Positions 1-42,702 of a DNA stretch of 45,664 nucleotides are shown here, one piece after another. The notes beneath the pieces were generated by a model. It saw only the letters and a program-made list of their open reading frames with translations, searched no databases and was not told the DNA's origin. The DNA comes from a virus: IMG/VR virus record IMGVR_UViG_3300043595_000022, positions 1-45,664 of that record, one strand, 5' to 3'. How positions within the stretch are numbered: position 1 is the first letter of the stretch; every line of letters begins with the position of its first letter. Position numbers and translations under genes: made by a program.

Positions 1-127
1 CCCCACTCCGCTCGACCCTCGGCGACTATTTCGAGCATGCGCCCGTGACGCTTCCAGGGGTTCAACGGTCGCCCCCCTCGGCGGGCTTCCGGGCGAGCCC
101 GCGCCTATGCTGCTCGGCCTGGGGGCA
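1..127. repeat. Terminal direct repeat, copy A (identical to 45538..45664)
   Basis: ccccactccgctcgaccctcggcgac...ctcggcctgggggca read at both ends, 127/127 identical by eye. Confidence 0.95.
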
Positions 128-301
128 CGACACGAAATGGGTCTGGTAGGTGTCGACCGCCCGCACGACGCCGTGCTCGTCGAGCACGAAACGTTTCTGG
201 GCGCTCGCGTCGAGCGGCATCGTCCGGCCGAGCGAGGTGCGCGCGAAAAGGATCGGCTGCCCGCACGTCGTGCACGGCGTCGGCCCGAACGCGTTAGGCA
301 C
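62..301 (-). CDS. Small Cys-pair (zinc-ribbon-like) protein
   Basis: GTG at 301 (the track start at 337 is also possible). CTTCGQ...HFVSCP Cys/His pairs. High GC3. The stop overlaps the TTG start of the next gene across the junction. Confidence 0.55.
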   Translation of the reverse strand: MPNAFGPTPCTTCGQPILFARTSLGRTMPLDASAQKRFVLDEHGVVRAVDTYQTHFVSCPQAEQHRRGLARKPAEGGDR

Positions 302-476
302 TGGGCACCTCGCGCCGGCCGCCGAAGAGGGCGGCACGGTAGCGCCCGACGAGCCAGTCGAGTTGCACGTGCACCAGGTCGAGCTCGCCCTCGCTGGGGA
401 GCTTGGCCGGTTCGATGGGCGCGGGCTCGGTGCAGTAGCAGGGCGTCGCCGGCCTGCCGTGGTTGACCGCGCTCAC
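294..476 (-). CDS. Hypothetical 60-aa protein
   Basis: GTGA start/stop overlap with 473..733. Very high third-position G+C in this frame. Confidence 0.5.
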   Translation of the reverse strand: MSAVNHGRPATPCYCTEPAPIEPAKLPSEGELDLVHVQLDWLVGRYRAALFGGRREVPSA

Positions 477-733
477 CCTTCCGCCCTCGGGCCGCGGCCG
501 CCGGCGGCGTAGAAAGACATGCGGGCGATGTCGCGCGCAAACTCGTTTGCCTCGGCCGGCGAGATCCAAACCTCGCGCCCGGCGAGCACGATACCGACGG
601 CGCCCTCGGCGGCGTTCAACGAGTAGGCGAACCGGCCGAGCTGCCGCCGGAGTCGAGCGCGTACCGGTCTGGGCGAAAGCTCGGGCGCGGATTTCGAACG
701 CCGCCGGTCGCCCAGTGAGACGACCTTAGGCAC
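473..733 (-). CDS. Hypothetical 86-aa protein immediately downstream of int
   Basis: The GTG start at 733 overlaps the integrase stop (726-728) by 8 nt. High GC3 throughout. Confidence 0.5.
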   Translation of the reverse strand: MPKVVSLGDRRRSKSAPELSPRPVRARLRRQLGRFAYSLNAAEGAVGIVLAGREVWISPAEANEFARDIARMSFYAAGGRGPRAEG

Positions 734-2243
734 GGTTCGCCTCGACGGGACGGGCCGCTTGGTCGCCCTCTTGCACGAGGAGGCGCGCGAGCTCGAGCGC
801 CCGTGTCATCGCATCGGGCGTGTCGGCGAGCACCTTGCGGGCGAGGCGCACGGGCTCGCACGCGAGCACCTCGGAGGCGAGCGACTCGGCGAGCTCGGTG
901 CAGTCCTCGCCGGCGGCAGCGGCGGCTAACAGCCGGGCTGCAAGGTCCGATCCCACGGCGATCCCATTTGAGGGTCTAACCGCTGGTAATTGTTCAGGAT
1001 GGGGTGAGTAACGGGGATTGATTTCCTGTGCGCTCGAACTGTCCGTAATCACTGCCAAATCTGGAACGTGTGGGACGGGCATGGGACCGAGCGGCGACCA
1101 TGTCGTGCGGCTCGCCGAGCGCGCGAGGGCCTCGGGCGCGAGGTGCGCGTAACGCTCGGTTTCCTCGACCGAGGCGTGGCCGAGAAAGTCTCGCACCTCG
1201 TGCAGACGCCACGGCTCGCCCCACATTCCCGAGACGAGCGCCGAGCCCGCCGTGTGCCGAAGGTCGTGCGGCCGCACGTGACGAGTGATGCCGGCGGCCG
1301 TGAGGTGCTCGCCCCAATTGGGCCAGTGGCTGACCTTCTGATACCCGCCGCGCTGCGCAGGGAACACGAGGTCGAGCGGATTCCTGGGCGCCCACTCGTG
1401 TGCGATCTGGCGCCAGCGGGTAAGCGCGTCGCGCGCGATCGGCAGCAACGGGACCGTCCGGATCTTGCGACCCTTCGGCGCCCGAAGCTTGCCCTTAGTC
1501 CGCGCGCCGTAGCGCACCACAATGTGCGGCGCGTCGCCATCGAGGTGCACGTCGCGCCAGTGCAGGTACCAGGCCTCGCCGCCGCGCATGCCAGTTCCGA
1601 CGAGCGTGGCCAGCCACAGGCGGAAGCGTTCCGGGATCTTCTCGCACGAAAACAGGCGCGCCTGTTCGTCGAGCGTCAGGTACGTCCATGCCTCCTCGGT
1701 CGGCGCGTCGCGTTTCGGCACGCGCACGGTCTCGATCGGATTGACCTCGAGGATCTCAGCAGCGACGGCGCCGGCAACGATGCGGCGCAGCAGTGTGAGC
1801 AGCTGCCCGAGCCACGAGTCGGAGGTTTCCGGGTGCTTTTTGGAGAGCACGGCGAGCCATTTCTCGACGGCCTTGCGCGTCACGCGCTTGACTGGCCAGT
1901 CTATAAACGGCGCTTTGGTGAGCCAGTTATTCCACGCCGAGCGAGCGGTCGGCATGGCGATGTAACGGCCGTGCTCGCCGAGCTCGAGCTCGGTCATGTA
2001 GCGCTGGCCGTAGCCGCGGAGAGTCACGCCGCCGCCGGTCGGCAGCATGTTGCCCGCGGCGGCCTCTTGAATGGCTGCCGCGAGCACGCCCTCGGCGTCC
2101 TCGTAAGTCGGGTGCGTGCCGAGCTCGAGCCGCGAACCGTCGGCAAGAGGCAGCCGGGCGCGAAAGCTGCCCGAGGGTAGCGGCTCGATACTGCCCTCGC
2201 CGGGCTTCCGGCGCCGTGTGTCTTCTGTGGTGTTGGCGTTCAT
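726..2243 (-). CDS. int: Tyrosine site-specific integrase with about 130-aa C-terminal extension
   Basis: Catalytic signature GMRGGE...HDLRHTAGSALV...LGHASVEETERYAHL (R..HxxR..Y). 505 aa. Confidence 0.95.
   Translation of the reverse strand: MNANTTEDTRRRKPGEGSIEPLPSGSFRARLPLADGSRLELGTHPTYEDAEGVLAAAIQEAAAGNMLPTGGGVTLRGYGQRYMTELELGEHGRYIAMPTARSAWNNWLTKAPFIDWPVKRVTRKAVEKWLAVLSKKHPETSDSWLGQLLTLLRRIVAGAVAAEILEVNPIETVRVPKRDAPTEEAWTYLTLDEQARLFSCEKIPERFRLWLATLVGTGMRGGEAWYLHWRDVHLDGDAPHIVVRYGARTKGKLRAPKGRKIRTVPLLPIARDALTRWRQIAHEWAPRNPLDLVFPAQRGGYQKVSHWPNWGEHLTAAGITRHVRPHDLRHTAGSALVSGMWGEPWRLHEVRDFLGHASVEETERYAHLAPEALARSASRTTWSPLGPMPVPHVPDLAVITDSSSAQEINPRYSPHPEQLPAVRPSNGIAVGSDLAARLLAAAAAGEDCTELAESLASEVLACEPVRLARKVLADTPDAMTRALELARLLVQEGDQAARPVEANRA
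955..1075. other. AT-rich island inside the int 3-prime coding region; candidate attP core
   Basis: Run of low-GC3 codons (GTT CCA GAT TTG GCA GTG ATT ... GAA CAA TTA CCA GCG GTT AGA) inside an otherwise GC3-rich gene. Confidence 0.3.
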
Positions 2244-2512
2244 TCCTTCAGCAACCCTTTCGAGCGTAGGATTTGGCGGGCCTTGGCGCTTTGCAGCTCG
2301 GTCGGCACGAGCCGCTGCATTCGTTCGGAGGGCGGGCGCTCGGGCGTTTTGCGGACGGTCGCGACCGTGCCCGACTCGGCATCTACGTCGGCGAACGAAA
2401 GCTCGCGGTGCATGTGCGCGATCTCCTCGTACAGATCGGCCAGGCGCGCGTGCACCTTGCCGACCGGTTTCGCGCTGGCGCGAGGCGTTTGCTTTCGAGC
2501 TACTGCACTCAT
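2240..2512 (-). CDS. Small basic protein coupled to int (position of a directionality factor; fold not recognised)
   Basis: ATG at 2512 (internal Met of track ORF 2240..2563). ATGA overlap with the int start at 2240-2243. Confidence 0.5.
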   Translation of the reverse strand: MSAVARKQTPRASAKPVGKVHARLADLYEEIAHMHRELSFADVDAESGTVATVRKTPERPPSERMQRLVPTELQSAKARQILRSKGLLKE

Positions 2513-2529
2513 AGCCGGCGACCTGGGAA

Positions 2530-2694
2530 TCAAGCGGCCCTCACGAACACGTGAAAGCCGCACGAAAGCACGGCGATCGCGAGCTCACCGCACGCGGGCG
2601 CGACGAGCAGCTCGACGCGTATCGGCTGCGAGCAGCTCGAGCAGCGCGGCCGCTCGATTGGCGCTGGTTTGGGTTGCACGTTCGACCGTTCCAC
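2530..2694 (-). CDS. Possible 54-aa Cys-containing ORF (not in ORF track)
   Basis: GGAGG (2702-2706), a 7-nt spacer, then GTG at 2694. Translation VERSNVQPKPAPIERPRCSSCSQPIRVELL... has higher GC3 than the overlapping track frames. It lies just downstream of the operator at 2724-2739. Confidence 0.3.
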   Translation of the reverse strand: MERSNVQPKPAPIERPRCSSCSQPIRVELLVAPACGELAIAVLSCGFHVFVRAA

Positions 2695-2723
2695 GCTCGT
2701 GCCTCCGATGTGTGTGCGGGTGA

Positions 2724-2739
2724 GTCTATGTATCTAGAC
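2724..2739. promoter_or_regulatory. Operator GTCTA-N6-TAGAC (upstream of the leftward int operon)
   Basis: GTCTATGTATCTAGAC, a perfect 5+5 inverted repeat. Confidence 0.6.
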
Positions 2740-2742
2740 AGT

Positions 2743-3027
2743 TCAGGCCGCGTTGACGGCGCTTCGAGCGCGCGAGACCGCGCGGCGGATCGTTTGCTCC
2801 GACGGCGGCTTGCCGGCGCCAGTCGCAAACCACTCGGTTTTCGCCCCGAAAACGCTGGCGATTCGCGCCGCCAAGTCGTGCGCCATGCGCGCCCCGGTCG
2901 ACTTGCCGCTGCCGCGCTCGAGCGCGGACGGGTAAGCGCGCGAAATTCCTGCCAATCTGGCAAGCTCGCTGCCGGATAGATCGGCCACGGTGCGGAGGTA
3001 GAGCAGCCTTTTCCCGACGGTATCCAT
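2743..3027 (-). CDS. XRE-family HTH repressor (CI-like), 94 aa
   Basis: Starts at the internal ATG at 3027. LRTVADLSGSELARLAGISRAYPSALERG is a classic HTH_3 motif. Divergent from a second HTH gene. Confidence 0.8.
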   Translation of the reverse strand: MDTVGKRLLYLRTVADLSGSELARLAGISRAYPSALERGSGKSTGARMAHDLAARIASVFGAKTEWFATGAGKPPSEQTIRRAVSRARSAVNAA

Positions 3028-3033
3028 TGGCTT

Positions 3034-3049
3034 GTCTACATGTGTAGAC
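3034..3049. promoter_or_regulatory. Operator GTCTA-N6-TAGAC (switch region, site 1)
   Basis: GTCTACATGTGTAGAC, 7 nt from the repressor start codon. Confidence 0.65.
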
Positions 3050-3051
3050 CC

Positions 3052-3067
3052 GTCGATTGCCCTAGAC
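3052..3067. promoter_or_regulatory. Operator-like site with one mismatch (switch region, site 2)
   Basis: GTCGATTGCCCTAGAC; the left half is GTCGA instead of GTCTA. Confidence 0.4.
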
Positions 3068-3086
3068 AAGTAACAAAAATGCAACA

Positions 3087-3102
3087 GTCTAGACGGATAG
3101 AC
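3087..3102. promoter_or_regulatory. Operator GTCTA-N6-TAGAC (switch region, site 3)
   Basis: GTCTAGACGGATAGAC. An additional TAGAC half-site lies at 3155-3159, next to the ATG at 3160. Confidence 0.65.
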
Positions 3103-3159
3103 ATAGCGCGCAAAAACTATTCGTTTACAACACCACTCGTTGTGACGAGACTTGTAGAC

Positions 3160-3663
3160 ATGACGCTCGCTGAGCGCCTGGAATTTATCCTGAAGCAGAA
3201 CAATTGGAACGCGGGAGTCTGGGCCCGGCGTGCCAAGCTGCACAGGTCGCACGTGTACGGTCTGATAAAAGCTGCAAGGGAAGGTGACACCAAAAAGCTT
3301 GCCTACGAGACCGCTCGGAAGCTCGCTCGCGCCGCCGGCGTCTCCGTCGAATGGCTAGCGGAGGGCATCGGAACACCAGACGATGCATTCATCGAGCAAG
3401 ACGACGAAGACGAAGACGACGACGAGGACCCAGCGATCCAAGCGCTATCGCTCCCGAAACGGCGTGCGCGCGAGGCCGCGCTCGCGCTCGAGCTGCCCGG
3501 AAAGGCGATCGCTCACGGCCTGCGCGAGCCCGACGGCTACCCCAGCCACTACTATTTCAAGGCGATGGAGCTCGCGGCCGAGCGCTTGCGCGGCGGTTCC
3601 CGCGGGGAAACACCTGTCCCGCCGCCGCCGCCGCCGAGCAAAACCAACTTAGGCCGACCCTAG
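3160..3663 (+). CDS. HTH regulator (Cro/early-regulator candidate) with acidic linker and C-terminal domain, 167 aa
   Basis: Internal ATG at 3160. LKQNNWNAGVWARRAKLHRSHVYGLIK is HTH-like. Linker is EQDDEDEDDDEDP. Divergent from the CI-like gene. Confidence 0.65.
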   Translation: MTLAERLEFILKQNNWNAGVWARRAKLHRSHVYGLIKAAREGDTKKLAYETARKLARAAGVSVEWLAEGIGTPDDAFIEQDDEDEDDDEDPAIQALSLPKRRAREAALALELPGKAIAHGLREPDGYPSHYYFKAMELAAERLRGGSRGETPVPPPPPPSKTNLGRP

Positions 3664-3953
3664 CGGCGTCGGAGATTGCCGGTTTGCACACGCTGTCGGC
3701 GTGAGCCGCGAATCTCGATCCGCACGATGCCCGGGCGAACCTGGTCGGAGGGCCGACGCGCGTGCGCAACTGGCGGCGGCGCCGTGACGACCTGGGCGAC
3801 GTGCATTTTTACACTGTCCGCGCTGCCGTTTTTCGTAATGGGACAACGCAATTGGCCCGATTCGTCGCGCTCGTAGGTCTCTGCCCGTAGCAGCGGCGAC
3901 CCGTCGCCCGCCTCTTTGATAAGCGTCAGTCGCACCCTCGGTCGCACCCTCAT
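3660..3953 (-). CDS. Hypothetical 97-aa protein (uncertain)
   Basis: ATG at 3953. Moderately high GC3. Its start faces the operator pair at 4047-4079. No recognisable motif. Confidence 0.35.
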   Translation of the reverse strand: MRVRPRVRLTLIKEAGDGSPLLRAETYERDESGQLRCPITKNGSADSVKMHVAQVVTAPPPVAHARRPSDQVRPGIVRIEIRGSRRQRVQTGNLRRR

Positions 3954-4046
3954 TGCCGCGGGGCACCATGCCGGATTCCGTGAGGTGTGTCTAGCCGCCT
4001 CGACGCGCACCCTGTGCGTTTTTTGTGGACCCCTAAACTTTCGCTT

Positions 4047-4062
4047 GTCTATGCACGTAGAC
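4047..4062. promoter_or_regulatory. Operator GTCTA-N6-TAGAC (tandem pair, left)
   Basis: GTCTATGCACGTAGAC. Confidence 0.6.
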
Positions 4063-4063
4063 G

Positions 4064-4079
4064 GTCTATAGGTATAGAC
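4064..4079. promoter_or_regulatory. Operator GTCTA-N6-TAGAC (tandem pair, right)
   Basis: GTCTATAGGTATAGAC, 1 nt from the left site and 20 nt upstream of the ATG at 4099. Confidence 0.6.
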
Positions 4080-4098
4080 AACATTGGAGCGCTTCCGG

Positions 4099-4314
4099 AT
4101 GAGTTTGGACCTGCCCGCCGAAGACTACGAGTTTCGCGTCATTGGATACCGGACGGACGAAGACGAGGACTGCACGCCGCCCTCGGGCGGCAAGTGGATC
4201 TGCGCGGCATTCACCGCGACTGAATCCACAAGCCACACTGGCGACGTCAATCGCACCGCTTGGATCCTGTGGGTACGCGGAACGCCTCGCGCGGCAGGCT
4301 CGAGCTCACCCTAG
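4099..4314 (+). CDS. Hypothetical 71-aa protein, first gene of the rightward early operon
   Basis: GGAG at 4086-4089 followed by ATG at 4099. Same frame as track ORF 4084..4314. Confidence 0.5.
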   Translation: MSLDLPAEDYEFRVIGYRTDEDEDCTPPSGGKWICAAFTATESTSHTGDVNRTAWILWVRGTPRAAGSSSP

Positions 4315-4345
4315 CGCCCCTACACCACCCGAAACGAGGGGCACT

Positions 4346-4654
4346 ATGTATCAAAAAGAACGATTGCAACGAATCCACGACTCCGTCGCCATGCTGCACC
4401 ACTGCTTGGCGGTCGATATGCGCGTCGGCTTTGAGCAGCTCGCCGGCCCGGCCGCGAGCCTCGCCGAGCTCGCGGCCGCGAGCGGCAACGACGAGATCAA
4501 GGGGCACGTGCTCGAGCTCGCGCTCGGGCACCGCGACGCCGCCATGTCGTGTGCGCAGCTGGGCGAGGCGCTCGGCGCCGTGCTCGCCGAGCTCGCGACG
4601 CTCGAGCTCGACGCCCAGGACGCCGAAACGCACGCGCTAGCGCACGCCGTCTGA
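4346..4654 (+). CDS. Hypothetical 102-aa helical protein
   Basis: GAGGGG RBS then ATG at 4346 (internal Met of track ORF 4142..4654). The N-terminal extension in the track is Arg/Pro-rich off-frame-looking sequence. Confidence 0.6.
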   Translation: MYQKERLQRIHDSVAMLHHCLAVDMRVGFEQLAGPAASLAELAAASGNDEIKGHVLELALGHRDAAMSCAQLGEALGAVLAELATLELDAQDAETHALAHAV

Positions 4655-4669
4655 GGTCGTCGAGGGGCC

Positions 4670-4942
4670 ATGGACGCGGGCGCATACGAGGCGCTGCCGT
4701 CGCACTTGCGCGACGGCATGCGGCGCTATCTCGAAGAGGGGATCCCGACGGGCGGCTTTTTGCGGGCCGTCCTCGAAAACGATTTGATGGGTGCGGTCAA
4801 GCGGGCCAGCCCGGGCACGAACCTGCTCGCGCTCGTCGATTGGCTGCTCGAGCACGCGCCGGCCGATGCATGGGGTAGCGTCGAGGCGGTCAGCAATTGG
4901 ATCCAGCGCCCAGGCGCACGCCCGCGGGTGCCGGGCACGTGA
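4670..4942 (+). CDS. Hypothetical 90-aa phage protein
   Basis: ATG ORF with good GC3. The stop overlaps the GTG start of the next gene. Confidence 0.6.
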   Translation: MDAGAYEALPSHLRDGMRRYLEEGIPTGGFLRAVLENDLMGAVKRASPGTNLLALVDWLLEHAPADAWGSVEAVSNWIQRPGARPRVPGT

Positions 4943-5811
4943 AGCGGATCAAATTCCCGTCACTCGTCCGCATGTCGGCCGAGGAGTATCACGCCGACCC
5001 GTGCCCCGAGCCGTCGCTTAGCTCGTCGATCGCGCACGCGCTCACGGCGCAATCGCCTCGGCACGCGTTCTTGCGGCACCCGCGGCTCGGCGGCCTGCCG
5101 CGAAAGGCGACCAAGCCAATGAACCGCGGCACGCTGTGTCACGCCCTGCTGCTCGGGCAGGGTCGCGACGTCGTGGTGCTCGAGGCCGCGGACTACAAAA
5201 CGAAGGACGCGCAGCGCGAGCGCGATGAGGCAGTCGCGGCCGGAAAAACGCCCGTGCTCGCGGACGAATACGGCGAGGCCGGGATCGCGGTCAACTCGAT
5301 CCGCGATCAATTGCTAAACGACTTTGGGATCACGCTCGACGGCGAAAGCGAGCTCGCGATGTTCTGGCACGAGCTCGCCGACGACGGTACGCGCGTGCCG
5401 TGCCGCGCGATGCTCGACCATTGGAACGAAGCACGAGGCCGCGGGCTCGACCTCAAGATATCGAGGAGCGCGCACCCGCGTGCGTGCATGCTGCACATGC
5501 TCGAGTATGGGTACGATCTGCAATGGGCGGCGTACACGAGCGGCCTGGGCAAGGTGTTTCCGAAGCTGCAAGGGCGGCTCGAGTTTCTGTACCTCTTCGC
5601 CGAGGGCGAGCCGCCCTATTGCGTCACGCCCTGCGAGCCGGCGGGCACAATGCGGCAGGTCGGCGAGAGTCGCTGGCGTCGTGCGATCAATCTGTGGGCA
5701 CGGTGCATGCGTGAGAACAAATGGCCGGCGTACGTGACCGACGTTGCTCGGCTCGAGGCGCCGCCCTGGGCGCTGGAAAGGGAGATGATTCAAGATGGCT
5801 CGAACCTTTGA
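4939..5811 (+). CDS. PD-(D/E)XK (RecB/Cas4-like, DUF3799-type) nuclease
   Basis: GTGA overlap at 4939-4942 (ATG at 4972 is an alternative). Motifs GLDLKISRS (D-x-K) and YDLQWAAY (QxxxY). Located upstream of a Sak4-like ATPase. Confidence 0.65.
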   Translation: MKRIKFPSLVRMSAEEYHADPCPEPSLSSSIAHALTAQSPRHAFLRHPRLGGLPRKATKPMNRGTLCHALLLGQGRDVVVLEAADYKTKDAQRERDEAVAAGKTPVLADEYGEAGIAVNSIRDQLLNDFGITLDGESELAMFWHELADDGTRVPCRAMLDHWNEARGRGLDLKISRSAHPRACMLHMLEYGYDLQWAAYTSGLGKVFPKLQGRLEFLYLFAEGEPPYCVTPCEPAGTMRQVGESRWRRAINLWARCMRENKWPAYVTDVARLEAPPWALEREMIQDGSNL

Positions 5812-6850
5812 AGACAAGCCCGCAACCCGCGAACGCACGCCGCTCTTTGTCGGCCTGATTGGCCCGAGCGGCAGCGGCAAAACCTTTTCCGCGCTGCGCC
5901 TAGCGAGCGGGTTTCAACGCGTGTCGGGCGGCGACGTCTTTTTCGTCGACACGGAAGCACGCCGCGCACTGCACTACGCCGACCGGTTCAAGTTCAGGCA
6001 CGTGCCGTTCGGGCGCCCATTCGGGCCGCTCGACTACCTCGCCGCCGTCGAGCATTGCGTGCGCAAGGGCGCCGGCACGATCATTGTCGATTCGATGTCG
6101 CACGAGCACGAGGGGCCCGGCGGCGTCCTCGAAATGCACGCGCAGGAAACGAAACGACTCGCGAGCGCATGGCGCACGAGCGAGGACAAAGCCAAGTTTT
6201 CGGCATGGAACAAGCCGAAGACCGAGCGGCGGCGCTTGATCACCACGCTCACGCAAGAGGCGTGCAACTTCATCCTTTGCTTTCGTGCCAAGCCAAAGAT
6301 CAAACCGGTGCGCGACGAAGACCCGCTCGAGCTCGGCCTCATGCCCATCGCCGGCGAAGAGTACGTGTATGAAATGACCGTGAAGTTTCTTTTGTACCCG
6401 GGCTCGCAGGGCATACCGACGCTCGAGTCGGACTATCCGGGCGAACGCACCATGATCAAGATCCCGGAACAATTCCGGGACTACCTCTATCAGAGTCGCG
6501 GCCGGAACCTTTCCGAGGACGCCGGCGAATACCTCGGGCGCTGGGCGGCAGGCACGGCGGCACCACCCAAAGTGACGGCGGCCGAGTTGCTCGCGAGCTA
6601 CGAAGCCTGCAGCGAGCCGGCGACGTATCGCACGCTCGAAGAGCAGCGGCGCGCCAACTGGTCGGCGTTCAAGAAAGAGGAAAAGGCGCAGCTCAAAGAG
6701 GCCGCCGAGCTCGCGACGAAGCGCATGGCCGAGGGCGACACGACGCCGCCCGAGCGCACGAGCGACGAGAGCGCAGCGGGCGAGCAGGCCGCCCAGGGCG
6801 AGGGCGCGGCAGCAGCAGGCGAGGGCGCAGCGACCGAGGGGCAGCAGTAG
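5795..6850 (+). CDS. Sak4-like RecA-fold ATPase (AAA_24-type) with low-complexity C-terminal tail
   Basis: Walker A GLIGPSGSGKTF and Walker B TIIVDS. Typical partner of a phage PD-(D/E)XK nuclease. Confidence 0.7.
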   Translation: MARTFEDKPATRERTPLFVGLIGPSGSGKTFSALRLASGFQRVSGGDVFFVDTEARRALHYADRFKFRHVPFGRPFGPLDYLAAVEHCVRKGAGTIIVDSMSHEHEGPGGVLEMHAQETKRLASAWRTSEDKAKFSAWNKPKTERRRLITTLTQEACNFILCFRAKPKIKPVRDEDPLELGLMPIAGEEYVYEMTVKFLLYPGSQGIPTLESDYPGERTMIKIPEQFRDYLYQSRGRNLSEDAGEYLGRWAAGTAAPPKVTAAELLASYEACSEPATYRTLEEQRRANWSAFKKEEKAQLKEAAELATKRMAEGDTTPPERTSDESAAGEQAAQGEGAAAAGEGAATEGQQ

Positions 6851-6961
6851 CACGCGCGCTCGCCGCTCCTCGTCTGTCCGCGTGCGTGGTTTCGGGAATC
6901 CCCCCCCACCCGACGCGCGTCATGCGGGCAGACTAGGAGCGGCGAGCGAACGGAGGTCAGC

Positions 6962-7450
6962 ATGTCAGACGACGAAACCATCGTGCAAAAACAAGTGCGG
7001 CTCGTGCTCGAACGGCAATGCCGCGAGCTCGCCGAGTTGCTCGCAAGCAAGGTGCCCGCGGGCGTCGGCTTTGTTCTGTTTCTCGCCGACCATGGCCCGA
7101 AGGGGAACACGGCCTATGTGTCCTCGGTCACGCGCGATAGCGCGCACGCGCTCGTGCACGAATGGCTCGACCGGCAAGACGCAAACCACCCGCAAGAGGG
7201 TTGGGAAGCGGCGGCGCAGTATGTCGCCGCGGTCGCGCGAGTAACAGGGTTCGAGGGCGAGGTCGATCCGGGCGCCGTGCTCGAGCATTGCGAGAAGCTA
7301 GCGGCCGCGGAGGTGCACGTGCTCAAAGCCGCGGCAACATTCGCGGCAGCGGTCGCAATGGCTACTCGGTACACTGGGCCGCGCGAGCTCGACGGCCTCC
7401 TCGAGCACTGTAAGCAGCTCGCCGCGAAAGCGGCCACGGTGCAGCCGTGA
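6962..7450 (+). CDS. Hypothetical 162-aa protein
   Basis: GGAGG-type RBS then ATG at 6962. High GC3. Confidence 0.6.
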   Translation: MSDDETIVQKQVRLVLERQCRELAELLASKVPAGVGFVLFLADHGPKGNTAYVSSVTRDSAHALVHEWLDRQDANHPQEGWEAAAQYVAAVARVTGFEGEVDPGAVLEHCEKLAAAEVHVLKAAATFAAAVAMATRYTGPRELDGLLEHCKQLAAKAATVQP

Positions 7451-7644
7451 TCCCGCTTCGCATCATTCTGGACGGCGAGGGTTGCTGGCCCGACCTCGCC
7501 GAAAAAGGCTTCACAAAGGGCGAGCTTGAGGCCGTCGCCGCGCTGCCGAATGGAACCGTCTCGGGCGCGCCGAGCGTGACCGTGCGCGTGACCTTGCCCG
7601 ATGGAACGATCGTGCTCGGCGCCGCGATCGACGGGCCATCGTGA
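7447..7644 (+). CDS. Hypothetical 65-aa protein
   Basis: GTGA overlaps at both ends (7447-7450 and 7641-7644). Confidence 0.5.
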   Translation: MIPLRIILDGEGCWPDLAEKGFTKGELEAVAALPNGTVSGAPSVTVRVTLPDGTIVLGAAIDGPS

Positions 7645-7931
7645 ACGCCGTTGCACTCATGGGCGACGGCTCGATCGTCTCGGGTCTGCACGCCGCGCTG
7701 CGCCGCGAATATCTCGTGCACCGCGCAATGCTCGTCGTTGGCGTCGCGCCGTGCGGGTGCATGTATGTGCTCAAAGACAAGTACGGCGGCAGCCCGCGAC
7801 CGGTCAACTTGCACGAGGCAAAGCTTGCGATCGAGCCGTACTGTCGGGCAGCGTTCGTGCCGCGCCTAACGCTGCGCGCGCTCTTCGCGCTCGAGCTCGA
7901 GCGCGCGCTCGGAAAGGGCGCGGTGCAATGA
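7641..7931 (+). CDS. Hypothetical 96-aa protein
   Basis: GTGA overlap upstream and ATGA overlap downstream. Confidence 0.5.
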   Translation: MNAVALMGDGSIVSGLHAALRREYLVHRAMLVVGVAPCGCMYVLKDKYGGSPRPVNLHEAKLAIEPYCRAAFVPRLTLRALFALELERALGKGAVQ

Positions 7932-8131
7932 TCGCGCTCGCCGGCAAGCGTTGCCACTACTGCCCGAACCCGGCGACGTACACGGATCGGATCGGTTCGA
8001 CGCGCCTGTACGTTTGCGACGAGTCGGACTGTAACCGGCAATTCGACGAGGAGGCGCGCGAGGCCGACCTCGACGCGGACGCGTTCGCGCGCGAGGCGGC
8101 CGAGGCCGACGGCTTCGAGCGGTACCGATGA
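7928..8131 (+). CDS. Small Cys-rich (zinc-ribbon-like) protein, 67 aa
   Basis: ATG at 7928 inside track ORF 7601..8131. CHYCPNP...VCDESDC. ATGA coupling on both sides. Confidence 0.5.
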   Translation: MIALAGKRCHYCPNPATYTDRIGSTRLYVCDESDCNRQFDEEAREADLDADAFAREAAEADGFERYR

Positions 8132-8313
8132 CACGCTGGCGCCTCAACAGGCCGATTGACTACGGCGATCGCTTCTGCCCCGCGTGCGGCCGCAAGCTCG
8201 CGGCAACCCGCCACGGCGTAACCGTCTGTTGCAACACGACCTGTTACAAGGTCGCTGCTCGTGAGCGCCGGCGAGTCGATCGGGCGCAAGGCATGAACGC
8301 GGGTTACAGGTGA
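8128..8313 (+). CDS. Small zinc-ribbon-like protein, 61 aa
   Basis: CPACGRKL...CCNTTC. Confidence 0.5.
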   Translation: MTRWRLNRPIDYGDRFCPACGRKLAATRHGVTVCCNTTCYKVAARERRRVDRAQGMNAGYR

Positions 8314-8316
8314 AGC

Positions 8317-8712
8317 ATGGCGGCTATCGAGTTTTCGCATTCGTACGAAACCACAACCTGCTGCAAATGCGGTGTCGCAATCGTCATGCCCGATGTCGTA
8401 ATGAAGCGCTTCAGAAGCAATCATGAATCCTTCTTTTGCGTGTACGGACACTCGCAACGCTTCACCGCCGAGACCGAGGCGGATCGGTTGAAGCGGGAAA
8501 AAGAAAGCCTCGAGAAGCGGCTTGCATGGAAGACAGCCGAGGCTGACGGCCTCGAGCGCCGCCGGCGGGCGGCCGTCGCGCAAGCGACCAAAGCCAAAAA
8601 CAAACTCGGCCGCGTCGCCAACGGCGTGTGCCCGTGCTGCAAGCGCTCGTTTCAAAACCTCATGCGTCACATGCAAACGAAACACCCGAGCTTTCGGGAA
8701 GGATTGGAGTAG
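8317..8712 (+). CDS. Zinc-finger / coiled-coil protein, 131 aa, visibly lower G+C than neighbours
   Basis: N-terminal CCKCG...FCVYGH, a central charged helix, and C-terminal CPCCKRSFQNLMRHMQTKH (C2H2-like). Confidence 0.6.
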   Translation: MAAIEFSHSYETTTCCKCGVAIVMPDVVMKRFRSNHESFFCVYGHSQRFTAETEADRLKREKESLEKRLAWKTAEADGLERRRRAAVAQATKAKNKLGRVANGVCPCCKRSFQNLMRHMQTKHPSFREGLE

Positions 8713-8979
8713 ATGCCCAAACCCGCCGACGACCGAATAGATCCCGAGCTCGCGTTGCGCGAAGTCCTGCACGCGCTCACGACGTACACCATGGAGCAAC
8801 GAGTCACGTCCTGCTCGGCCCTCATGTCCGCGATCGTGCGCTACGGCCGCTCGTGCCGGCGCGACGAGGCCGCTCGCATCTTCGACGAGCTCGGCGAGGC
8901 CCGACGCGCGGCCGCGTGTACCCAGGGCCGCGATCCAGCCGGCGACGCCTTCGCCCTCGACTTCGCTTGGGAGCGTTGA
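8713..8979 (+). CDS. Hypothetical 88-aa protein
   Basis: The ATG immediately follows the upstream stop. Good GC3. Confidence 0.5.
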   Translation: MPKPADDRIDPELALREVLHALTTYTMEQRVTSCSALMSAIVRYGRSCRRDEAARIFDELGEARRAAACTQGRDPAGDAFALDFAWER

Positions 8980-8982
8980 CGC

Positions 8983-9345
8983 ATGGGGCACCGAACCGAG
9001 GAGGTCTATCTATTCGTCGTCACTGACCCCAAGACGGGCGACGAGGGCGTGATCGCCGAGCGCTCGCGCGACGGGCAATGGTTGCCCGCGGTGTGTACCG
9101 ACCCCGAGCGGGTCGAATTTTGGCGACCGAGGGTGCAACGTATCGCCGACCACTACGCCGCGCCCGTTCGCCTGCTGCGCTTCTCGCAGCGCAGCGAGGT
9201 CGAGGTGCTCGAGCCGCGCGAGGGCGTGCCAAGGGCGACCGCCGGGCGCTGCCGCATGTGCGGGTGCACCGACGATCGCGCCTGCCCGGGCGGATGCGCA
9301 TGGGTCGCGCCCGACCTCTGCTCGAGCTGCGTTCGAAACCAGTAG
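8983..9345 (+). CDS. Hypothetical 120-aa protein with C-terminal Cys cluster
   Basis: CRMCGCTDDRACPGGCAWVAPDLCSSC at the C-terminus. Last gene of the rightward operon. Confidence 0.55.
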   Translation: MGHRTEEVYLFVVTDPKTGDEGVIAERSRDGQWLPAVCTDPERVEFWRPRVQRIADHYAAPVRLLRFSQRSEVEVLEPREGVPRATAGRCRMCGCTDDRACPGGCAWVAPDLCSSCVRNQ

Positions 9346-9368
9346 AGTTTTGCCCCGGGCCGGGCGGG

Positions 9369-9941
9369 CTAGGGCTCGAGCCGCGCTAGTAGCCGGCGGT
9401 AGGTGCGAGCTCGAGGCGCTGCGCCCGGCCAGCGGCAACCCGTCGCAGGCCGGGCATAGAACGCGATAGCGCCCTCGATCGACCTGCACCGACGGTGCCC
9501 AAAGCCGAGCTCGCGAGCGGCCGCGTAGGCGGCTCGCGTCGTGGGGTAGTACTCGACGCCCTCGAGCTCGAGCCATTCGGCGCGCGGTAGCCTCGGGCCC
9601 GCTTGCGTTTGCCAGTAGTGCCGCGCCCTGCCGCCGTCGCATTCCCAGGGCTTGCAGGCGCCGGCGCCGACGTGCTTTGCAAACGCGCTTTCGTGCCAGC
9701 CGACGGCGCCCAGGAGGGCGACGAGCTCGGCGGGCTTGCCCTGCCAAACCGGCGTGCAAAAGTCGGCACCCTCGAACGGGCCCGAGCAGGTCGCCTCGAG
9801 CGCGGCCGAGTGCATCGCCTCGGCGGTCGTCGTCATGCGTGCGAGCCGCTCGTCGTGCGTCTCACGGTCGCGATGGTAGGGCGCGAGCGATAGCAGGGTT
9901 TGCAGTGTCAGAACGACCGAGGCGAGGAATGCAGCAACCAT
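9369..9941 (-). CDS. Secreted/membrane-anchored protein, possible SLT-like peptidoglycan hydrolase (tentative)
   Basis: ATG at 9941 (the track start at 9971 is TTG). N-terminal hydrophobic segment MVAAFLASVVLTLQTLLSLA. GWHESAF resembles the E-S-x-F motif of lytic transglycosylases. Confidence 0.5.
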   Translation of the reverse strand: MVAAFLASVVLTLQTLLSLAPYHRDRETHDERLARMTTTAEAMHSAALEATCSGPFEGADFCTPVWQGKPAELVALLGAVGWHESAFAKHVGAGACKPWECDGGRARHYWQTQAGPRLPRAEWLELEGVEYYPTTRAAYAAARELGFGHRRCRSIEGAIAFYARPATGCRWPGAAPRARTYRRLLARLEP

Positions 9942-9960
9942 GCGGCCGAGGCTAGCTCGG

Positions 9961-10452
9961 TCAATTTGCAATGGCCCGTTTTACAACCTCGATAATTGCC
10001 GCAATCAACGCGCCGAATATCAGCACGAGCACGTCGCGAGTTTTGCTTTTGCCCTCGACCTTGTTCGCCTCGACCTTGGCGATAGCCTCGGTTTGCTTCT
10101 GCTGCCGCAAGGTGAGGATCTCCGCATTCTGTCGGGCGTCGCTCGCGAGCACGGCGTCGAGCTTTGCGTCGATCGTTTTCAGCTCGAGCCGAGCGAAACT
10201 CGTTTCGCGTTGCGCGTCCTCGACCGCGCGCAAGCGTTGCTCGAGCTCGCCGGCGTGCACCTCGACGCGCTCGACCTGGTCGGCGAGCTCGCCCTGCCCC
10301 TGATGAATGACCTTGAGCCAGCCGAGGATCGACTCGCGCTCCTCGGGCGGCAGCGAGCTCGGCGTGTGCCGACGTTCCGAATTGCCGCGCGCGGGCGGCG
10401 GCGGGATCTCCACGCCGCCGACGCGCTTACCGCTTGGCCGGCGTGGCTCCAT
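9961..10452 (-). CDS. Coiled-coil protein with C-terminal transmembrane anchor
   Basis: ATG at 10452 (GTG at 10413 is an alternative). Heptad-like ELADQVERVEVHAGELEQRLRAVEDAQ. C-terminal VLVLIFGALIAAIIEVV. Confidence 0.5.
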   Translation of the reverse strand: MEPRRPSGKRVGGVEIPPPPARGNSERRHTPSSLPPEERESILGWLKVIHQGQGELADQVERVEVHAGELEQRLRAVEDAQRETSFARLELKTIDAKLDAVLASDARQNAEILTLRQQKQTEAIAKVEANKVEGKSKTRDVLVLIFGALIAAIIEVVKRAIAN

Positions 10453-10750
10453 GGACTTCGTCCGCGAGCTCGTTGTGTCTCTCCTCGAGGGCGCTGTGCT
10501 TACTCGTGAGCTCGAATACCTGACGCTCGAGCTGCTCGACCCGGTTTGCGAGCTCGTGTCGATACTCGTGCACCTCGCGAAACAACTTGCGGTTTTCCTC
10601 GACAAGTTTCCCGTTGCCGCGCACGAGGGCGGCGTTACCGTCCTGCAATTCACGCACGCACCTAAGCACCTCGGGAATGTCTTTCACCTGGGCGAAAATG
10701 AGGTCGAGCGTCGGCTGCTTGCCGGGCGGGATCGATTGCTCTTCGGCCAT
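10427..10750 (-). CDS. Coiled-coil protein, 107 aa
   Basis: ATG at 10750 is the only protein-like part of the 359-aa Arg-rich track ORF 10427..11506. NRKLFREVHEYRHELANRVEQLERQVFEL. Confidence 0.5.
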   Translation of the reverse strand: MAEEQSIPPGKQPTLDLIFAQVKDIPEVLRCVRELQDGNAALVRGNGKLVEENRKLFREVHEYRHELANRVEQLERQVFELTSKHSALEERHNELADEVHGATPAKR

Positions 10751-10824
10751 ATGCCTTGATTGTACCGGCTGCACGCCCGTTTGGCCCGGGCTCGCCTCGG
10801 GATCTGTCTTTCGGTCCGTATCGC

Positions 10825-11847
10825 TCACGCTTTGGTGTCCTCGTCGAGGGCGCTGCGCCAAGCGTCGCGACCGACGATCCCGTCGCCGCGAAAGCCATGC
10901 GCCTGCTGCCAAGCGACCGTTGCGCGGTGCGTGATCGGCCCGAAAATACCGTCGTCTTTCACGCCAACGACCCGTTGCCATCGGGCAACGTTGGCGCCCT
11001 TTGCCCCGATCCCGAGCGACTCGGCGGGCACCGCCTGCCGCCCGCCCTTCTCCTCGAGCAGCGCGAGTTGATTGCGAACGATCTGCAAGTAGACCCCCCA
11101 GGGAAAGGCCGGCCCGGGATCCCAGTGCTTCGACTTCTTGTATGCTTGGTTGACGTCGTGATGGCCGCAGATACCGGCGGCGCCGACGAGCACCTCGCTT
11201 GCCGTGAGCTGCCGCACGGGAATGCGCCAGCGGTCGCAGATACCGGCGACGAGGACGGCCGAGCGGGCAAGCAGCGTTCGCGAGTAGGCGTCTTGCCAGT
11301 CGCCCGCGAGCTGCTTTGCACGACCGGCGTGCTCGACGCCAATCGACACGCCGTTGACGCCCGGCGCGTGACCCGCGACGTCGCGCTCGAGCACGCTCTG
11401 CGTGATCGAATCCGCGTCGACGGCGTAGTGCCATGACGCTTCGGGCGCGTCCGGCCCTGCCACCCAGGCGGCGAGGTTTTCGGCGGCTCGGTTCGTCTCG
11501 TCGCATTCGGCAGTGTGAATCACGACGAGCCGCACGGCGCGCCCTTGACCGGGCTTGAAGAGACGCGCCGGGATAAACGGCACGTCTTCGAGGTCGCCGC
11601 GCACGCTCGTTTGGCGCGCCGCCGGAGTCACGGACGGCGGCAGCACGAGCGGGCCGTCGGGCGCATACAGCGTCACGCCCTTGTGCTCGCCCTTCTCCTT
11701 GCTCTTGTGCGGCTCGAGCCGCGCTTCGTACGCGCGACCGTCGAGCTCGAACGGAATGCGCGCGCCCATCGGCGGATTCGTTTTCAGGATCGCGCTCGCC
11801 TTTGCAATCAGGGCGGGCGTCAATTCGTTGTTTCCCATTCGGCGCAT
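10825..11847 (-). CDS. Endolysin: N-acetylmuramoyl-L-alanine amidase (Amidase_2/PGRP type) with C-terminal PG_binding_1 domain
   Basis: VVIHTAECDE...GHHDVN...KHWDPGPAFPW. C-terminal ARWQRVVGVKDDGIFGPITHRATVAWQQAHGFRGDGIVG. ATG at 11847 or 11838. Confidence 0.85.
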   Translation of the reverse strand: MRRMGNNELTPALIAKASAILKTNPPMGARIPFELDGRAYEARLEPHKSKEKGEHKGVTLYAPDGPLVLPPSVTPAARQTSVRGDLEDVPFIPARLFKPGQGRAVRLVVIHTAECDETNRAAENLAAWVAGPDAPEASWHYAVDADSITQSVLERDVAGHAPGVNGVSIGVEHAGRAKQLAGDWQDAYSRTLLARSAVLVAGICDRWRIPVRQLTASEVLVGAAGICGHHDVNQAYKKSKHWDPGPAFPWGVYLQIVRNQLALLEEKGGRQAVPAESLGIGAKGANVARWQRVVGVKDDGIFGPITHRATVAWQQAHGFRGDGIVGRDAWRSALDEDTKA

Positions 11848-11851
11848 GGAT

Positions 11852-12055
11852 TCACCTATCGTCCCATGGGTGCCGCCTGACGCCGAGCTCGCGCACGACC
11901 GGCAGCTTTGAATCACGCTCGGGCGGTTCGTCGCCCATGAACGCGAGCGCGAATTCGCGGCGTAGCTCGCGCCGATCGCGCGGCTCTAAGAGGCTCATAA
12001 TGTAGTGCACGAGCGAGCGCGCCGCCTCTTTGGACAGATCGCCACCCTCGAGCAC
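11852..12055 (-). CDS. Hypothetical 67-aa protein
   Basis: GGAGG (12063-12067), a 7-nt spacer, then GTG at 12055. Same frame as track ORF 11852..12103. Confidence 0.45.
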   Translation of the reverse strand: MLEGGDLSKEAARSLVHYIMSLLEPRDRRELRREFALAFMGDEPPERDSKLPVVRELGVRRHPWDDR

Positions 12056-33605: not shown

Positions 33606-33809
33606 ATGCACACCAGAACACCGTTAGGTCGGTTGAACGAAGCCGAGGCAGCGAAAGCGCGTCAAATGGTGACGGAACACGGGGCGAAAGAGGCCGCCAA
33701 GAGGCTTGGTCTATGCAACGAGCGGACGTTGCGAAAGGCGGCGCTCGGCGAACCCGTGCACCCGCTCACGCTCTCCACTCTTCGCGCGAAGCTGCCCGAC
33801 ACGCTTTGA
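33606..33809 (+). CDS. Small HTH DNA-binding protein, 67 aa
   Basis: EHGAKEAAKRLGLCNERTLRKAALGE is HTH-like. Lower G+C than the surroundings. Directly upstream of the portal gene on the same strand. Confidence 0.5.
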   Translation: MHTRTPLGRLNEAEAAKARQMVTEHGAKEAAKRLGLCNERTLRKAALGEPVHPLTLSTLRAKLPDTL

Positions 33810-33827
33810 CCGTGGCACATTCGCAGC

Positions 33828-35393: not shown

Positions 35394-35421
35394 CCGCTGC
35401 AAGATTCAATTCTTGCAGCGG
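35394..35421 (+). terminator. Perfect 11-bp stem-loop immediately after the portal stop
   Basis: ccgctgcaaga ttcaat tcttgcagcgg. No U-tract. Confidence 0.45.
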
Positions 35422-35543
35422 GCGCACGCTCGGCCCGCCGGGCGCACGGCGTAACAAAGCCATTGTTACGGCTTTGTTCTGCCCCGCCGCCCGCAAGCCC
35501 GCGATGTCTAGACGCAGCCGACGTGGCACGCCGGGCGCATTAC

Positions 35544-35559
35544 GTCTAGACTTATAGAC
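35544..35559. promoter_or_regulatory. Operator GTCTA-N6-TAGAC upstream of the lipoprotein moron
   Basis: GTCTAGACTTATAGAC, followed by AGGAGGGG RBS and ATG at 35577. A GTCTAGAC palindrome also occurs at 35506-35513. Confidence 0.55.
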
Positions 35560-35576
35560 AGGAGGGGTTCGCACAA

Positions 35577-36233
35577 ATGCGCCCTTGGATCATGATCGCG
35601 AGTTTCTGTTGTTCTCTGATTGCTTGCTCGGGCGCCGACGGCGGCGACTCGCCGCACGAGCCCGGGCCCGACGCGGGCGATGCGGGCGAGCTCGAGGCCG
35701 ACGCCGCCGGCGGGCGGGCAGGCGAGGGGGGCACGGGCGGAGGCGCCGGCACGGCCGCTCACGGCGGCTCGGCGGGCACGAGCTCGGGCGGCATGGCCGG
35801 CACGTCGGGCGGCTCGAGCGGCAGCGCTGGACGGGCGGGCACGGGCGGCAGCGCGGGTGCCGCGGGCAGCTCGGGCAGCGCCGGCACGGCGGGCAAGGGC
35901 GGCTCGGCCGGCACGGGCGGCAGCGGCAGCGGCGGCGGCGGCGCGGCGACGTGCCCGAGCACGTGCTCGTACCTAAGCTTTCCGGCGACGAAAAGCTCCC
36001 CGCCGGCGACGACCTCGGGCACCGCGGAGGTGCGCGCCGTGTGCCCGGCGGGCAGCACGATCGAGCCGGGCCCGGCCTATTGCTTCAACTGCGATCCGGG
36101 CACCGCGCAGCGGCTCCCTAACGGGATCGTGCGCTGCTTTCCAATGCCGGCCGCGCCGGCGGGCTCGGTATGCACGATTCAGTTTAGGTGCGTGACCGAG
36201 CGCTTCTGCGTCGAATGGAATGCGCCATGCTGA
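35577..36233 (+). CDS. Lipoprotein with Gly/Ser/Ala-rich repeat region and Cys-rich C-terminal domain (moron)
   Basis: Signal peptide plus lipobox MRPWIMIASFCCSLIAC|SG. GGSAGT-type repeats. 10 Cys in the last 90 aa. Confidence 0.75.
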   Translation: MRPWIMIASFCCSLIACSGADGGDSPHEPGPDAGDAGELEADAAGGRAGEGGTGGGAGTAAHGGSAGTSSGGMAGTSGGSSGSAGRAGTGGSAGAAGSSGSAGTAGKGGSAGTGGSGSGGGGAATCPSTCSYLSFPATKSSPPATTSGTAEVRAVCPAGSTIEPGPAYCFNCDPGTAQRLPNGIVRCFPMPAAPAGSVCTIQFRCVTERFCVEWNAPC

Positions 36234-38480: not shown

Positions 38481-38490
38481 TGTGGCTTGT

Positions 38491-42698: not shown

Positions 42699-42702
<4 letters not shown>
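41407..42702 (-). CDS. DnaB-type replicative helicase
   Basis: Walker A GADTSWGKT, Walker B LVIFDYLH, and IGRTVTSAIKQSRAAGVMFAQL. Start is uncertain (TTG 42702 with TTGA overlap, or ATG 42663). The track start at 42756 reads poly-Arg through the GTC repeat. Confidence 0.8.

Follow-up and report, generated by a model that had tools for sequence, protein, structure and literature searches.

In the lambdoid phages lambda, 434 and P22, divergent helix-turn-helix (HTH) genes share palindromic operators that cover both of their promoters, and a palindrome of two 5-bp half-sites separated by 6 bp suits the geometry of dimers of the 434 type. P2-type switches use direct repeats as operators, and their promoters stand face to face. 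The controller (C) proteins of restriction-modification (R-M) systems are small dimers of the Xre type whose leaderless gene is immediately preceded by two adjacent palindromic operators, and the stoperators of L5 and Bxb1 are asymmetric 13-bp sites present in 20–30 copies genome-wide in one orientation. Here we analyse a 16-bp palindrome, GTCTANNNNNNTAGAC (GTCTA-N6-TAGAC), that recurs in the IMG/VR virus record IMGVR_UViG_3300043595_000022 (positions 1 to 45,664; this whole stretch of 45,664 nucleotides is called the window below). With a probability that we put at roughly 0.8, the palindromes are operators of this phage's switch between lysis and lysogeny, bound by its own two paralogous HTH repressors, named HTH94 and HTH167 after their lengths in amino acids (aa). 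This reading rests on the enrichment of the sites, their non-coding placement, the conservation of their half-sites at 60 of 60 alignment columns, and their co-occurrence with one HTH gene pair, and it agrees with a preliminary description of the window, made from the sequence alone, that had proposed operators of a dimeric HTH regulator.

Perfect copies lie at 2724, 3034, 3087, 4047, 4064 and 35544, exactly the six listed in the preliminary description, and its estimate of well under 0.1 copies by chance is borne out by 100 dinucleotide-preserving shuffles (mean 0.00 perfect copies, maximum 0). Allowing one mismatch yields 8 matches against 0.26 expected and adds 3052, which had also been reported, and 3989; allowing two yields 10 against 4.8 expected and adds 3144 and 38489. 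The scan with zero to two mismatches thus brought in two sites missing from the earlier list, 3144 and 3989, and sites recur in the relatives described below. The degenerate copies at 3052, 3144 and 3989 belong to the site set. In a scan with a position weight matrix built from all sites, the nine window sites score 15–26 and 38489 scores 12.5, with a background of at most 9.5. Half-sites as such are not over-represented genome-wide (39 vs ~49 expected); they are concentrated, with 14 of the 39 falling within 2724–4079, or 3% of the genome. All nine sites are non-coding and adjoin gene starts, as the promoter-proximal placement first described would have it, and coding regions hold no similar number of copies. 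The non-coding share of the genome is ~8–10% on an open reading frame (ORF) map based on G+C content at third codon positions (GC3).

The first and last 127 bp of the window form an exact direct repeat (1–127 = 45538–45664), so the window is a circularly closed whole phage genome of ~45.5 kb and no prophage fragment, which makes the pattern search exhaustive for this phage. The Logan assembly SRR35212539 contains an identical copy, and its gene calls served as a check on the window genes. There are only nine or ten sites in total, all palindromic, of which a stretch of 1.4 kb holds eight, in the following order:

2724–2739, no strand: perfect site GTCTATGTATCTAGAC, 3 bp past the stop codon of the HTH94 gene
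2743–3027, minus strand: HTH94 gene, predicted 94-aa Xre/434-Cro-type HTH protein
3034–3049, no strand: O_a, perfect, 6 bp upstream of the HTH94 ATG
3052–3067, no strand: O_b, GTCGATTGCCCTAGAC, one deviation, starting 18 bp after O_a
3087–3102, no strand: O_c, GTCTAGACGGATAGAC, perfect, centre ~65 bp upstream of the HTH167 start
3144–3159, no strand: O_d, GACGAGACTTGTAGAC, weak, two deviations, abutting the HTH167 ATG and overlapping the proposed −10
3160–3663, plus strand: HTH167 gene, 167-aa HTH protein
3660–3953, minus strand: p97 gene, 97 aa, converging on the HTH167 gene with overlapping stop codons
3989–4004, no strand: O_e, GTCTAGCCGCCTCGAC, one deviation, 35 bp upstream of the p97 ATG
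4002–4027, plus strand: G+C-rich stem-loop followed by a T-run, terminator-like, between O_e and O_f/O_g
4047–4062, no strand: O_f, perfect, forming TTGTCT (4045–4050) with the two preceding T bases
4064–4079, no strand: O_g, GTCTATAGGTATAGAC, perfect, starting 17 bp after O_f
4099–4314, plus strand: first gene of the early rightward operon, 71 aa

O_a to O_d all lie in the 132-bp divergent region (3028–3159) between the two regulator genes, and O_e, O_f and O_g form a second cluster (3989–4079) ~1.0 kb from the first, with the HTH167 gene in between. The O_f/O_g pair ends 19 bp before the ATG at 4099 of the early operon, which continues into genes for a DUF3799 exonuclease and an AAA_24 protein. 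With the remote site at 35544 included, five transcription units have operators overlapping or abutting their starts: leftward, rightward, p97, early operon and a lipoprotein gene.

A diverged relative, a phage of the same kind on a 48-kb contig represented by its loci L084 and L091, was reached through the one HTH167 homologue. Identities to the window are 64% for HTH94, 71% for the DNA-binding domain of HTH167 (61% for HTH167 overall), 63% for DnaB, 70% for the large terminase (TerL), 56% for the exonuclease, 62% for AAA_24 and 51% for the product of the first early gene; another gene occupies the integrase position. Six switch-region sites are found in L084 at equivalent positions and with the same deviations:

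L084 9997, no strand: O_a, perfect, abutting the ATG of the leftward gene
L084 10015, no strand: O_b, same GTCGA deviation and same 18-bp spacing
L084 10105, no strand: O_d, GACGACACTCGTAGAC, same GACGA deviation (both deviations shared), abutting the rightward ATG
L084 10899, no strand: O_e, same TCGAC deviation
L084 10971, no strand: O_f, 17 bp from O_g
L084 10988, no strand: O_g, 16/16 bp identical to the window

In pairwise alignments of the window and L084, all 60 of 60 half-site columns are identical, compared with 22 of 36 columns in the site centres and 79 of 205 (39%) in other intergenic columns (half-sites against the latter, Fisher p=6e-21). Each weak site (3052, 3144 and 3989) changes CTA to CGA in one half-site, identically in the relative, which suggests selected graded affinity or discrimination between the two proteins. 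A 918-bp contig, L094, encodes an HTH94 homologue (56% identical) and a divergent HTH167-like gene, and keeps three sites: O_b at 187, O_a at 205 with the same 18-bp spacing and abutting an ATG, and O_d at 97–112, which reads GACGACACTCGTAGAC, identical to that of L084.

These alignments bear on whether the palindromes are protein operators at all. Perfect 5-bp inverted repeats might instead form hairpins in RNA or DNA, acting as terminators or processing sites, be targets of restriction-modification, or serve as replication iterons or recombination sites, and one cluster does adjoin the terminator-like stem-loop at 4002–4027, itself partly conserved in L084. We find this barely credible. The stems are kept base for base without compensatory changes and the loops vary, as expected of sequence-specific recognition; as RNA the hairpins are of low stability (−2.9 to −6.1 kcal/mol), and none of the sites is directly followed by a T-run. 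On these three grounds the hairpin or terminator version was rejected. A phage would avoid restriction targets and not cluster them at promoters, and iterons are as a rule direct repeats close to the gene of an initiator.

A wider set of 80 phage loci, reached through the AAA_24 protein and carrying immunity genes that differ from those of the window, contains no copy of the motif. In an exploratory palindrome scan, uncorrected for multiple testing, at least 9 of these 80 loci (L020, L025, L028, L030, L041, L047, L055, L065 and L067) have their own 5-N(4–6)-5 palindromes in the corresponding region (~2.7–5.5 kb in each), mostly as two groups ~0.6–1.7 kb apart; examples are ACAAC-N4-GTTGT, ATAGG-N5-CCTAT, TTACC-N4-GGTAA and GGGGA-N4-TCCCC. 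In L025, ATAGG-N5-CCTAT occurs at 3613, 3637, 4684 and 4709. Among the four loci examined (L020, L025, L041 and L067), the palindromes flank the genes that separate the early operon from a leftward Cro-like gene, and a rightward HTH repressor gene between the palindromes was identified in three (L025, L041 and L067). This is the classic pattern of immunity-specific operators of mosaic phages, and these palindromes with their repressors amount to a ready-made collection of heteroimmune operator/repressor pairs.

The same distribution speaks against a host-encoded global regulator, for example a LexA-like protein, as the factor that binds the sites. HTH167 has no self-cleavage domain, so induction needs some host input; a few unrelated contigs from metagenomes also carry the dual motif; and the host genome may have copies of its own. 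We nevertheless consider a host regulator very improbable: the motif was found only in the three genomes with this HTH pair (the window, L084/L091 and L094) and was absent from the 80 others, several of which have their own palindromes instead. The sites moreover abut both HTH start codons, which is typical of autoregulated phage repressors, and we know of no LexA box that matches the motif. The unrelated contigs are tandem duplications or have the motif beside a different HTH gene.

A search for the dual-operator pattern gave 0 matches in viral contigs and six short unrelated contigs, with no homologues of window proteins, in metagenome contigs. The six were set aside as uninformative on this phage, two being tandem duplications and two lying beside an unrelated HTH gene. 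In the latter two (L086 1267–1299 and L090 898–930), tandem GTCTA-N6-TAGAC sites with 17-bp spacing stand directly upstream of a gene for a 147–160-aa HTH protein that has no detectable similarity to the window regulators, and the L086 pair adjoins a gene resembling the C-terminus of a type I restriction enzyme. They may reflect convergent use of the same half-site.

Both regulators are, by profile matches and structural models, Xre/434-Cro-type HTH DNA-binding proteins. HTH94 matches the PHROG family phrog_2328 ("transcriptional repressor") at E=4e-10 and Pfam HTH_31 at 23.7 bits, under the gathering cut-off of 27 bits; its family consists of ~95-aa proteins with 455 representatives at E ≤1e-3. 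The AlphaFold2 (AF2) model built on that 455-member alignment (pLDDT 92) has a five-helix Xre fold with a long extra C-terminal helix, superposes on 434 Cro with a target-normalised TM-score of 0.87, and also matches C.BclI, C.AhdI and SinR and, more weakly, P2 C. The best PDB sequence matches are C.BclI and C.AhdI (E ~0.008). HTH167 belongs to the same phrog_2328 (E=1e-7), and the two proteins are homologous over the entire 72-residue DNA-binding domain (25% identity, E=2e-7). HTH167 is built of an N-terminal HTH domain, a disordered acidic linker, two predicted C-terminal helices of low confidence and a Pro-rich tail. Because only one relative is known, its AF2 model is weak (pLDDT 60); the HTH domain resembles DdrO and the 434 repressor. 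The tail PPPPSKTNL(G/P)RP (3616–3663) is kept in both phages, the rest of the C-terminal half being only loosely similar, and it possibly acts as a tag for degradation or interaction that bears on the induction of a repressor without a self-cleavage domain.

In further searches for relatives, genome and viral-contig scans with HTH94 returned only uninformative HTH proteins 28–36% identical, a word-based protein search with HTH94 returned only HTH94 itself, the integrase used as bait in viral contigs found nothing, and alignment-based scans of viral contigs found no relatives of HTH167 or HTH94.

The preliminary description had left three candidates for the regulator: a CI-like protein, a Cro-like protein and the 67-aa HTH protein encoded at 33606–33809. 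Our analysis favours the CI/Cro pair, although the two labels were probably swapped (see below), and leaves the third candidate without support. The 67-aa protein is small and HTH-like, with a weak match to Pfam Phage_CP76/CII (E=0.045), and its gene lies 1.7 kb upstream of the site at 35544 on the same strand. We think it highly improbable that it binds the motif, since its own upstream region has no site, the sole nearby half-site is inside its own coding sequence, and eight of the nine sites surround the other two HTH genes, at a distance of over 29 kb.

The arrangement of the sites points to candidate promoters, whose hexamers were read by eye and whose geometry is fixed across the window, L084 and L094:

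minus strand: leftward promoter, TTGTCT (in the TAGACAA half of O_b), 17 bp, TACACA (centre of O_a)
3124–3152, plus strand: rightward promoter, TTTACA, 17 bp, GAGACT, then 7 nt to the A of the ATG at 3160
plus strand: early promoter, TTGTCT (4045–4050, O_f), 16 bp, TATAGG (4067–4072, O_g)

Across the three genomes the leftward −10 reads TACACA, TACATG or TATACG, always in the centre of O_a and followed by 7 nt to the ATG; the leader in the window would be 6–7 nt. The rightward promoter in L084 and L094 reads GTGACA-17-GACACT-7-start, with its −10 inside O_d. A −10 embedded in O_g would explain why its centre, alone among the centres, is shared unchanged by the window and L084. Neither regulator gene of the relatives has room for a Shine-Dalgarno sequence, and both regulator mRNAs are therefore probably leaderless.

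From these elements a switch can be proposed in which dimers of HTH94 and HTH167 recognise the sites. The leftward promoter, with O_a and O_b over its −10 and −35, would drive HTH94 and then the integrase, replication, packaging and structural genes; the rightward promoter, with weak O_d over positions −10 to −1, would drive the monocistronic, leaderless HTH167 gene; and the O_f/O_g tandem would cover the core promoter of the early recombination operon. In a lysogen, HTH167 as maintenance repressor would fill the strong sites, cooperatively at the pairs spaced 17–18 bp, and would thereby silence the two lytic operons and the lipoprotein gene. At high concentration only, it would also occupy O_d and so repress its own gene, as lambda repressor does at OR3/PRM. 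HTH94, made from the leftward lytic promoter, would act as the Cro-like antagonist. More speculatively, the two clusters, ~1.0 kb apart around the HTH167 gene, could loop as OL and OR do in lambda.

The assignment of roles within this switch is less secure than the operators themselves; on balance we favour HTH167 as the CI-like maintenance repressor and HTH94 as the Cro-like protein, which would correct the likely identity of the maintenance repressor. The HTH167 gene is monocistronic, lies between both operator clusters, encodes a two-part protein and faces a convergent gene, unlike a Cro gene heading an early operon. Its promoter carries only weak O_d, with two deviations, and the HTH94 promoter carries the strongest operator pair, the opposite of what a maintenance circuit run by HTH94 would need. 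The leftward unit runs from HTH94 on the same strand through the integrase, DnaB, RuvC, TerS and TerL, which makes leftward the main lytic direction. In two relatives, L067 and L041, an HTH+Peptidase_S24 gene fills the HTH167 slot and the leftward gene is YdaS/Cro-like; across the 80 loci, the S24 proteins are on HTH167's strand in 4 of 4 cases.

The roles may also be reversed, with HTH94 as an immunity repressor co-transcribed with the integrase, as in P2 C-int and 186 cI-int, and HTH167 as a lytic Cro-, Cox- or Apl-like protein. Small genes and then the integrase do follow HTH94 on the same strand, in P2 the int gene follows the repressor gene (PMC1904263), and the site at 2724, just after the HTH94 stop codon, could block read-through in a lysogen into int and the lytic genes. 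Small size is no bar to an immunity repressor, because the 99-aa P2 C is among the fold matches of HTH94. The features of strand, operator strength and synteny given above count against such a reversal, as do palindromic sites at divergent promoters, unlike the P2 type, and we regard it as unlikely, if a serious contender.

Several points weigh against the switch as we have drawn it, with HTH167 as the maintenance repressor. We infer every protein–DNA assignment from sequence. A sigma-70 consensus scan of 2400–4400 found no promoter, and the proposed −10s are weak (TACACA, GAGACT and TATAGG), so that the promoters are argued from conserved geometry and not from consensus strength. Two of the perfect sites lack an equivalent in the relative, 2724 in either L084 or L094 and O_c (3087) in L084. 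The S24-type immunity proteins of the relatives are not homologous to HTH167, which makes the synteny argument positional only. Small repressors can serve immunity, as P2 C does, and HTH94-int could be a lysogenic operon. Lastly, neither HTH94 nor HTH167 matches the Peptidase_S24 domain, and HTH167, with no significant Pfam match and a model at pLDDT 60, leaves lysogen induction unaccounted for.

The ninth site lies far from the switch, in front of a lipoprotein gene, and the tenth candidate precedes the TerL gene region:

35544–35559, no strand: perfect site GTCTAGACTTATAGAC, abutting the Shine-Dalgarno sequence AGGAGGGG of the lipoprotein gene
35577–36233, plus strand: lipoprotein gene, 218 aa, lipobox LIAC, Gly/Ser/Ala-rich linker, Cys-rich C-terminal domain
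38489–38504, no strand: candidate weak site GTCTAGACGTCGCGAC, two deviations, 8 bp upstream of the ATG of a 74-aa gene preceding the TerL gene

In the relative, a perfect site GTCTATACTCGTAGAC likewise abuts the GGGAGGG Shine-Dalgarno sequence of a homologous lipoprotein gene, whose protein is 39% identical. By this shared context the lipoprotein gene is a predicted member of the regulon, with an operator that would sit between promoter and ribosome-binding site, and an operator before a lipoprotein operon points to an accessory function under repressor control. A sigma-54-like −24/−12 element, TGGCACGCCGGGCGCA, lies at 35524–35539 and ends 4 nt before the operator at 35544; in the relative (L091 12730–12800, minus strand), TGGCGTGCCGCTTGCA stands at the same distance from its operator. 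The sigma-54 consensus is not enriched in the window (4 matches vs 7.6 expected), and the element is picked out by its conserved position in the relative only. About 65 bp further upstream lies a unique 19-bp palindrome, GTAACAA-N5-TTGTTAC (35451–35469; 0.02 expected), also conserved in the relative.

The site at 38489 is doubtful, as it is not conserved in the relative. One string, TAGACAAGCCA, stands shortly before the ATG (minus strand) of both the HTH94 gene (3028–3049) and the 74-aa gene (38481–38496); the latter copy is part of site 38489 and is not conserved in L091. The octamer GTCTAGAC occurs four times (3087, 35506, 35544 and 38489) against 0.22 expected. The palindromes reported for 35506 and 38489 are thus present in the window, without being conserved in the relative, and the bare octamer was dropped as a separate motif, being absent from L091, the part of this relative that the octamer scan covered.

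Taken jointly, four features might describe a distinct switch design in an uncultured, probably Myxococcota, phage lineage, a reading that we offer tentatively and hold to be rather unlikely. The two paralogous regulators would both have leaderless mRNAs; the −35 (TTGTCTA) and −10 (GTCTAnnnn) hexamers of the promoters would come from operator half-sites; the repressor would work without a self-cleavage domain and with the conserved tail PPPPSKTNLxRP; and the repressor would gate a distant lipoprotein operon whose sole recognisable promoter is the conserved sigma-54-like −24/−12 element with its upstream palindrome. If true, this design would tie the immunity of the phage to an enhancer-binding protein of the host.

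Around the switch, the unannotated p97 is 45% identical to the product of L084 10594–10866 (minus strand), and neither Pfam nor PHROG gave a match for it. Antisense transcription from its gene into that of the repressor is conceivable, and p97 is possibly an antirepressor or other switch component. The site at 2724 stands 29 bp before the GGAGG-N7-GTG start of a 54-aa ORF (2530–2694, minus strand; 80% GC3, CxxC motif), which lies downstream of that site, is uncalled in the public assembly and has no homologue in L084; a 90-aa gene on the minus strand separates the integrase gene from this ORF. The other genes named above are as follows:

726–2243, minus strand: tyrosine integrase
4939–5811, plus strand: DUF3799 exonuclease
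5795–6850, plus strand: AAA_24 protein
36715–38259, minus strand: TerL
41407–42756, minus strand: DnaB-like helicase

The window also encodes a RuvC-like resolvase and a TerS-like protein; its G+C content is 66% and its gene set that of a temperate phage. TerL is at most 36% identical to the cultured phages of the collection, and a megablast search of 1–12000 against cultured phages gave no match. The top named TerL homologue comes from a metagenome-assembled genome of Polyangiaceae (54% identity), so the host is probably a member of the Myxococcota. Rfam and tRNA scans of the window found nothing. Amid the late genes, an island on the opposite strand (33606–36616, plus strand) converges on the TerL gene and contains the 67-aa HTH-like gene, a gene for a 521-aa protein and two lipoprotein genes (lipoboxes LIAC and LLAC). 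The 521-aa protein has only a weak portal match (phrog_113, E=7e-5); its positional counterpart in L092, of 515 aa, is Portal_Mu, and in L092 the Mu-like portal gene and the terminase gene are likewise in opposite orientation. A direct repeat of ~210 bp (27657–27863 and 27891–28091, 77% identity) lies within a 651-aa ORF (26912–28867, minus strand) and is an internal duplication in what is likely a structural or tail gene.

Conceptually this would be another lambda-style switch, useful and unsurprising, and mechanistically conventional. It yields a complete nine-site operator map with strong and weak classes for an uncultured temperate phage of high G+C content, whose regulators have almost no relatives in public data, and its repressor with the operators could be put to use as an orthogonal regulatory part in hosts of high G+C content. 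A literature search for the half-sites together with operator or repressor returned only unrelated TetR-type boxes such as AmtR, and no description of this operator.

Among known systems, the P2/186 phages resemble the window in having a small HTH repressor-like gene followed by an integrase gene on the same strand, and the HTH94 fold resembles P2 C; in the window, however, the promoters are divergent, the operators palindromic, and the leftward operon continues into replication and late genes. The controller proteins of R-M systems provide the best PDB sequence matches of HTH94, yet their boxes have the half-site GACT/AGTC and not GTCTA, the promoter-proximal position of the strong site here implies repression and no activate-then-repress logic, and R-M genes are absent, the neighbours of the switch being the integrase, the other HTH gene and recombination genes. 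With the stoperators of L5 and Bxb1 the window shares two sites at which repressor binding might halt elongation, 2724 within an operon and 35544 in the gap between promoter and ribosome-binding site, and differs in that its nine sites are palindromic and mostly at promoters.

The lambdoid phages come closest. As in lambda, 434 and P22, two divergent HTH genes share several palindromic operators, which here would cover both proposed promoters, the other proposed early promoter has a second cluster, so that the presumed repressor gene is enclosed by the two, and recombination genes occupy the early operon behind the second cluster, as in the lambda PL operon. The weak operator on the presumed maintenance promoter follows the logic of OR1/OR2 and OR3, the presumed repressor mRNA appears to be leaderless, as is lambda cI from PRM, and the 434-type fold fits the geometry of half-site-N6-half-site. 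The differences are that the window proteins have no detectable sequence relationship to those of lambda, 434 or P22 beyond the fold, that HTH167 has no Peptidase_S24 domain, and that the Cro-like protein carries an additional helix at its C-terminus and is encoded directly ahead of the integrase gene. In addition, the sites are spaced 17–18 bp centre to centre vs 20–24 bp in those phages, both regulator genes appear leaderless, and the window has a remote lipoprotein operator and the convergent p97 gene within its immunity region. In its proposed function the system is a lambda/434-type switch, and it is no sequence-level member of those families.

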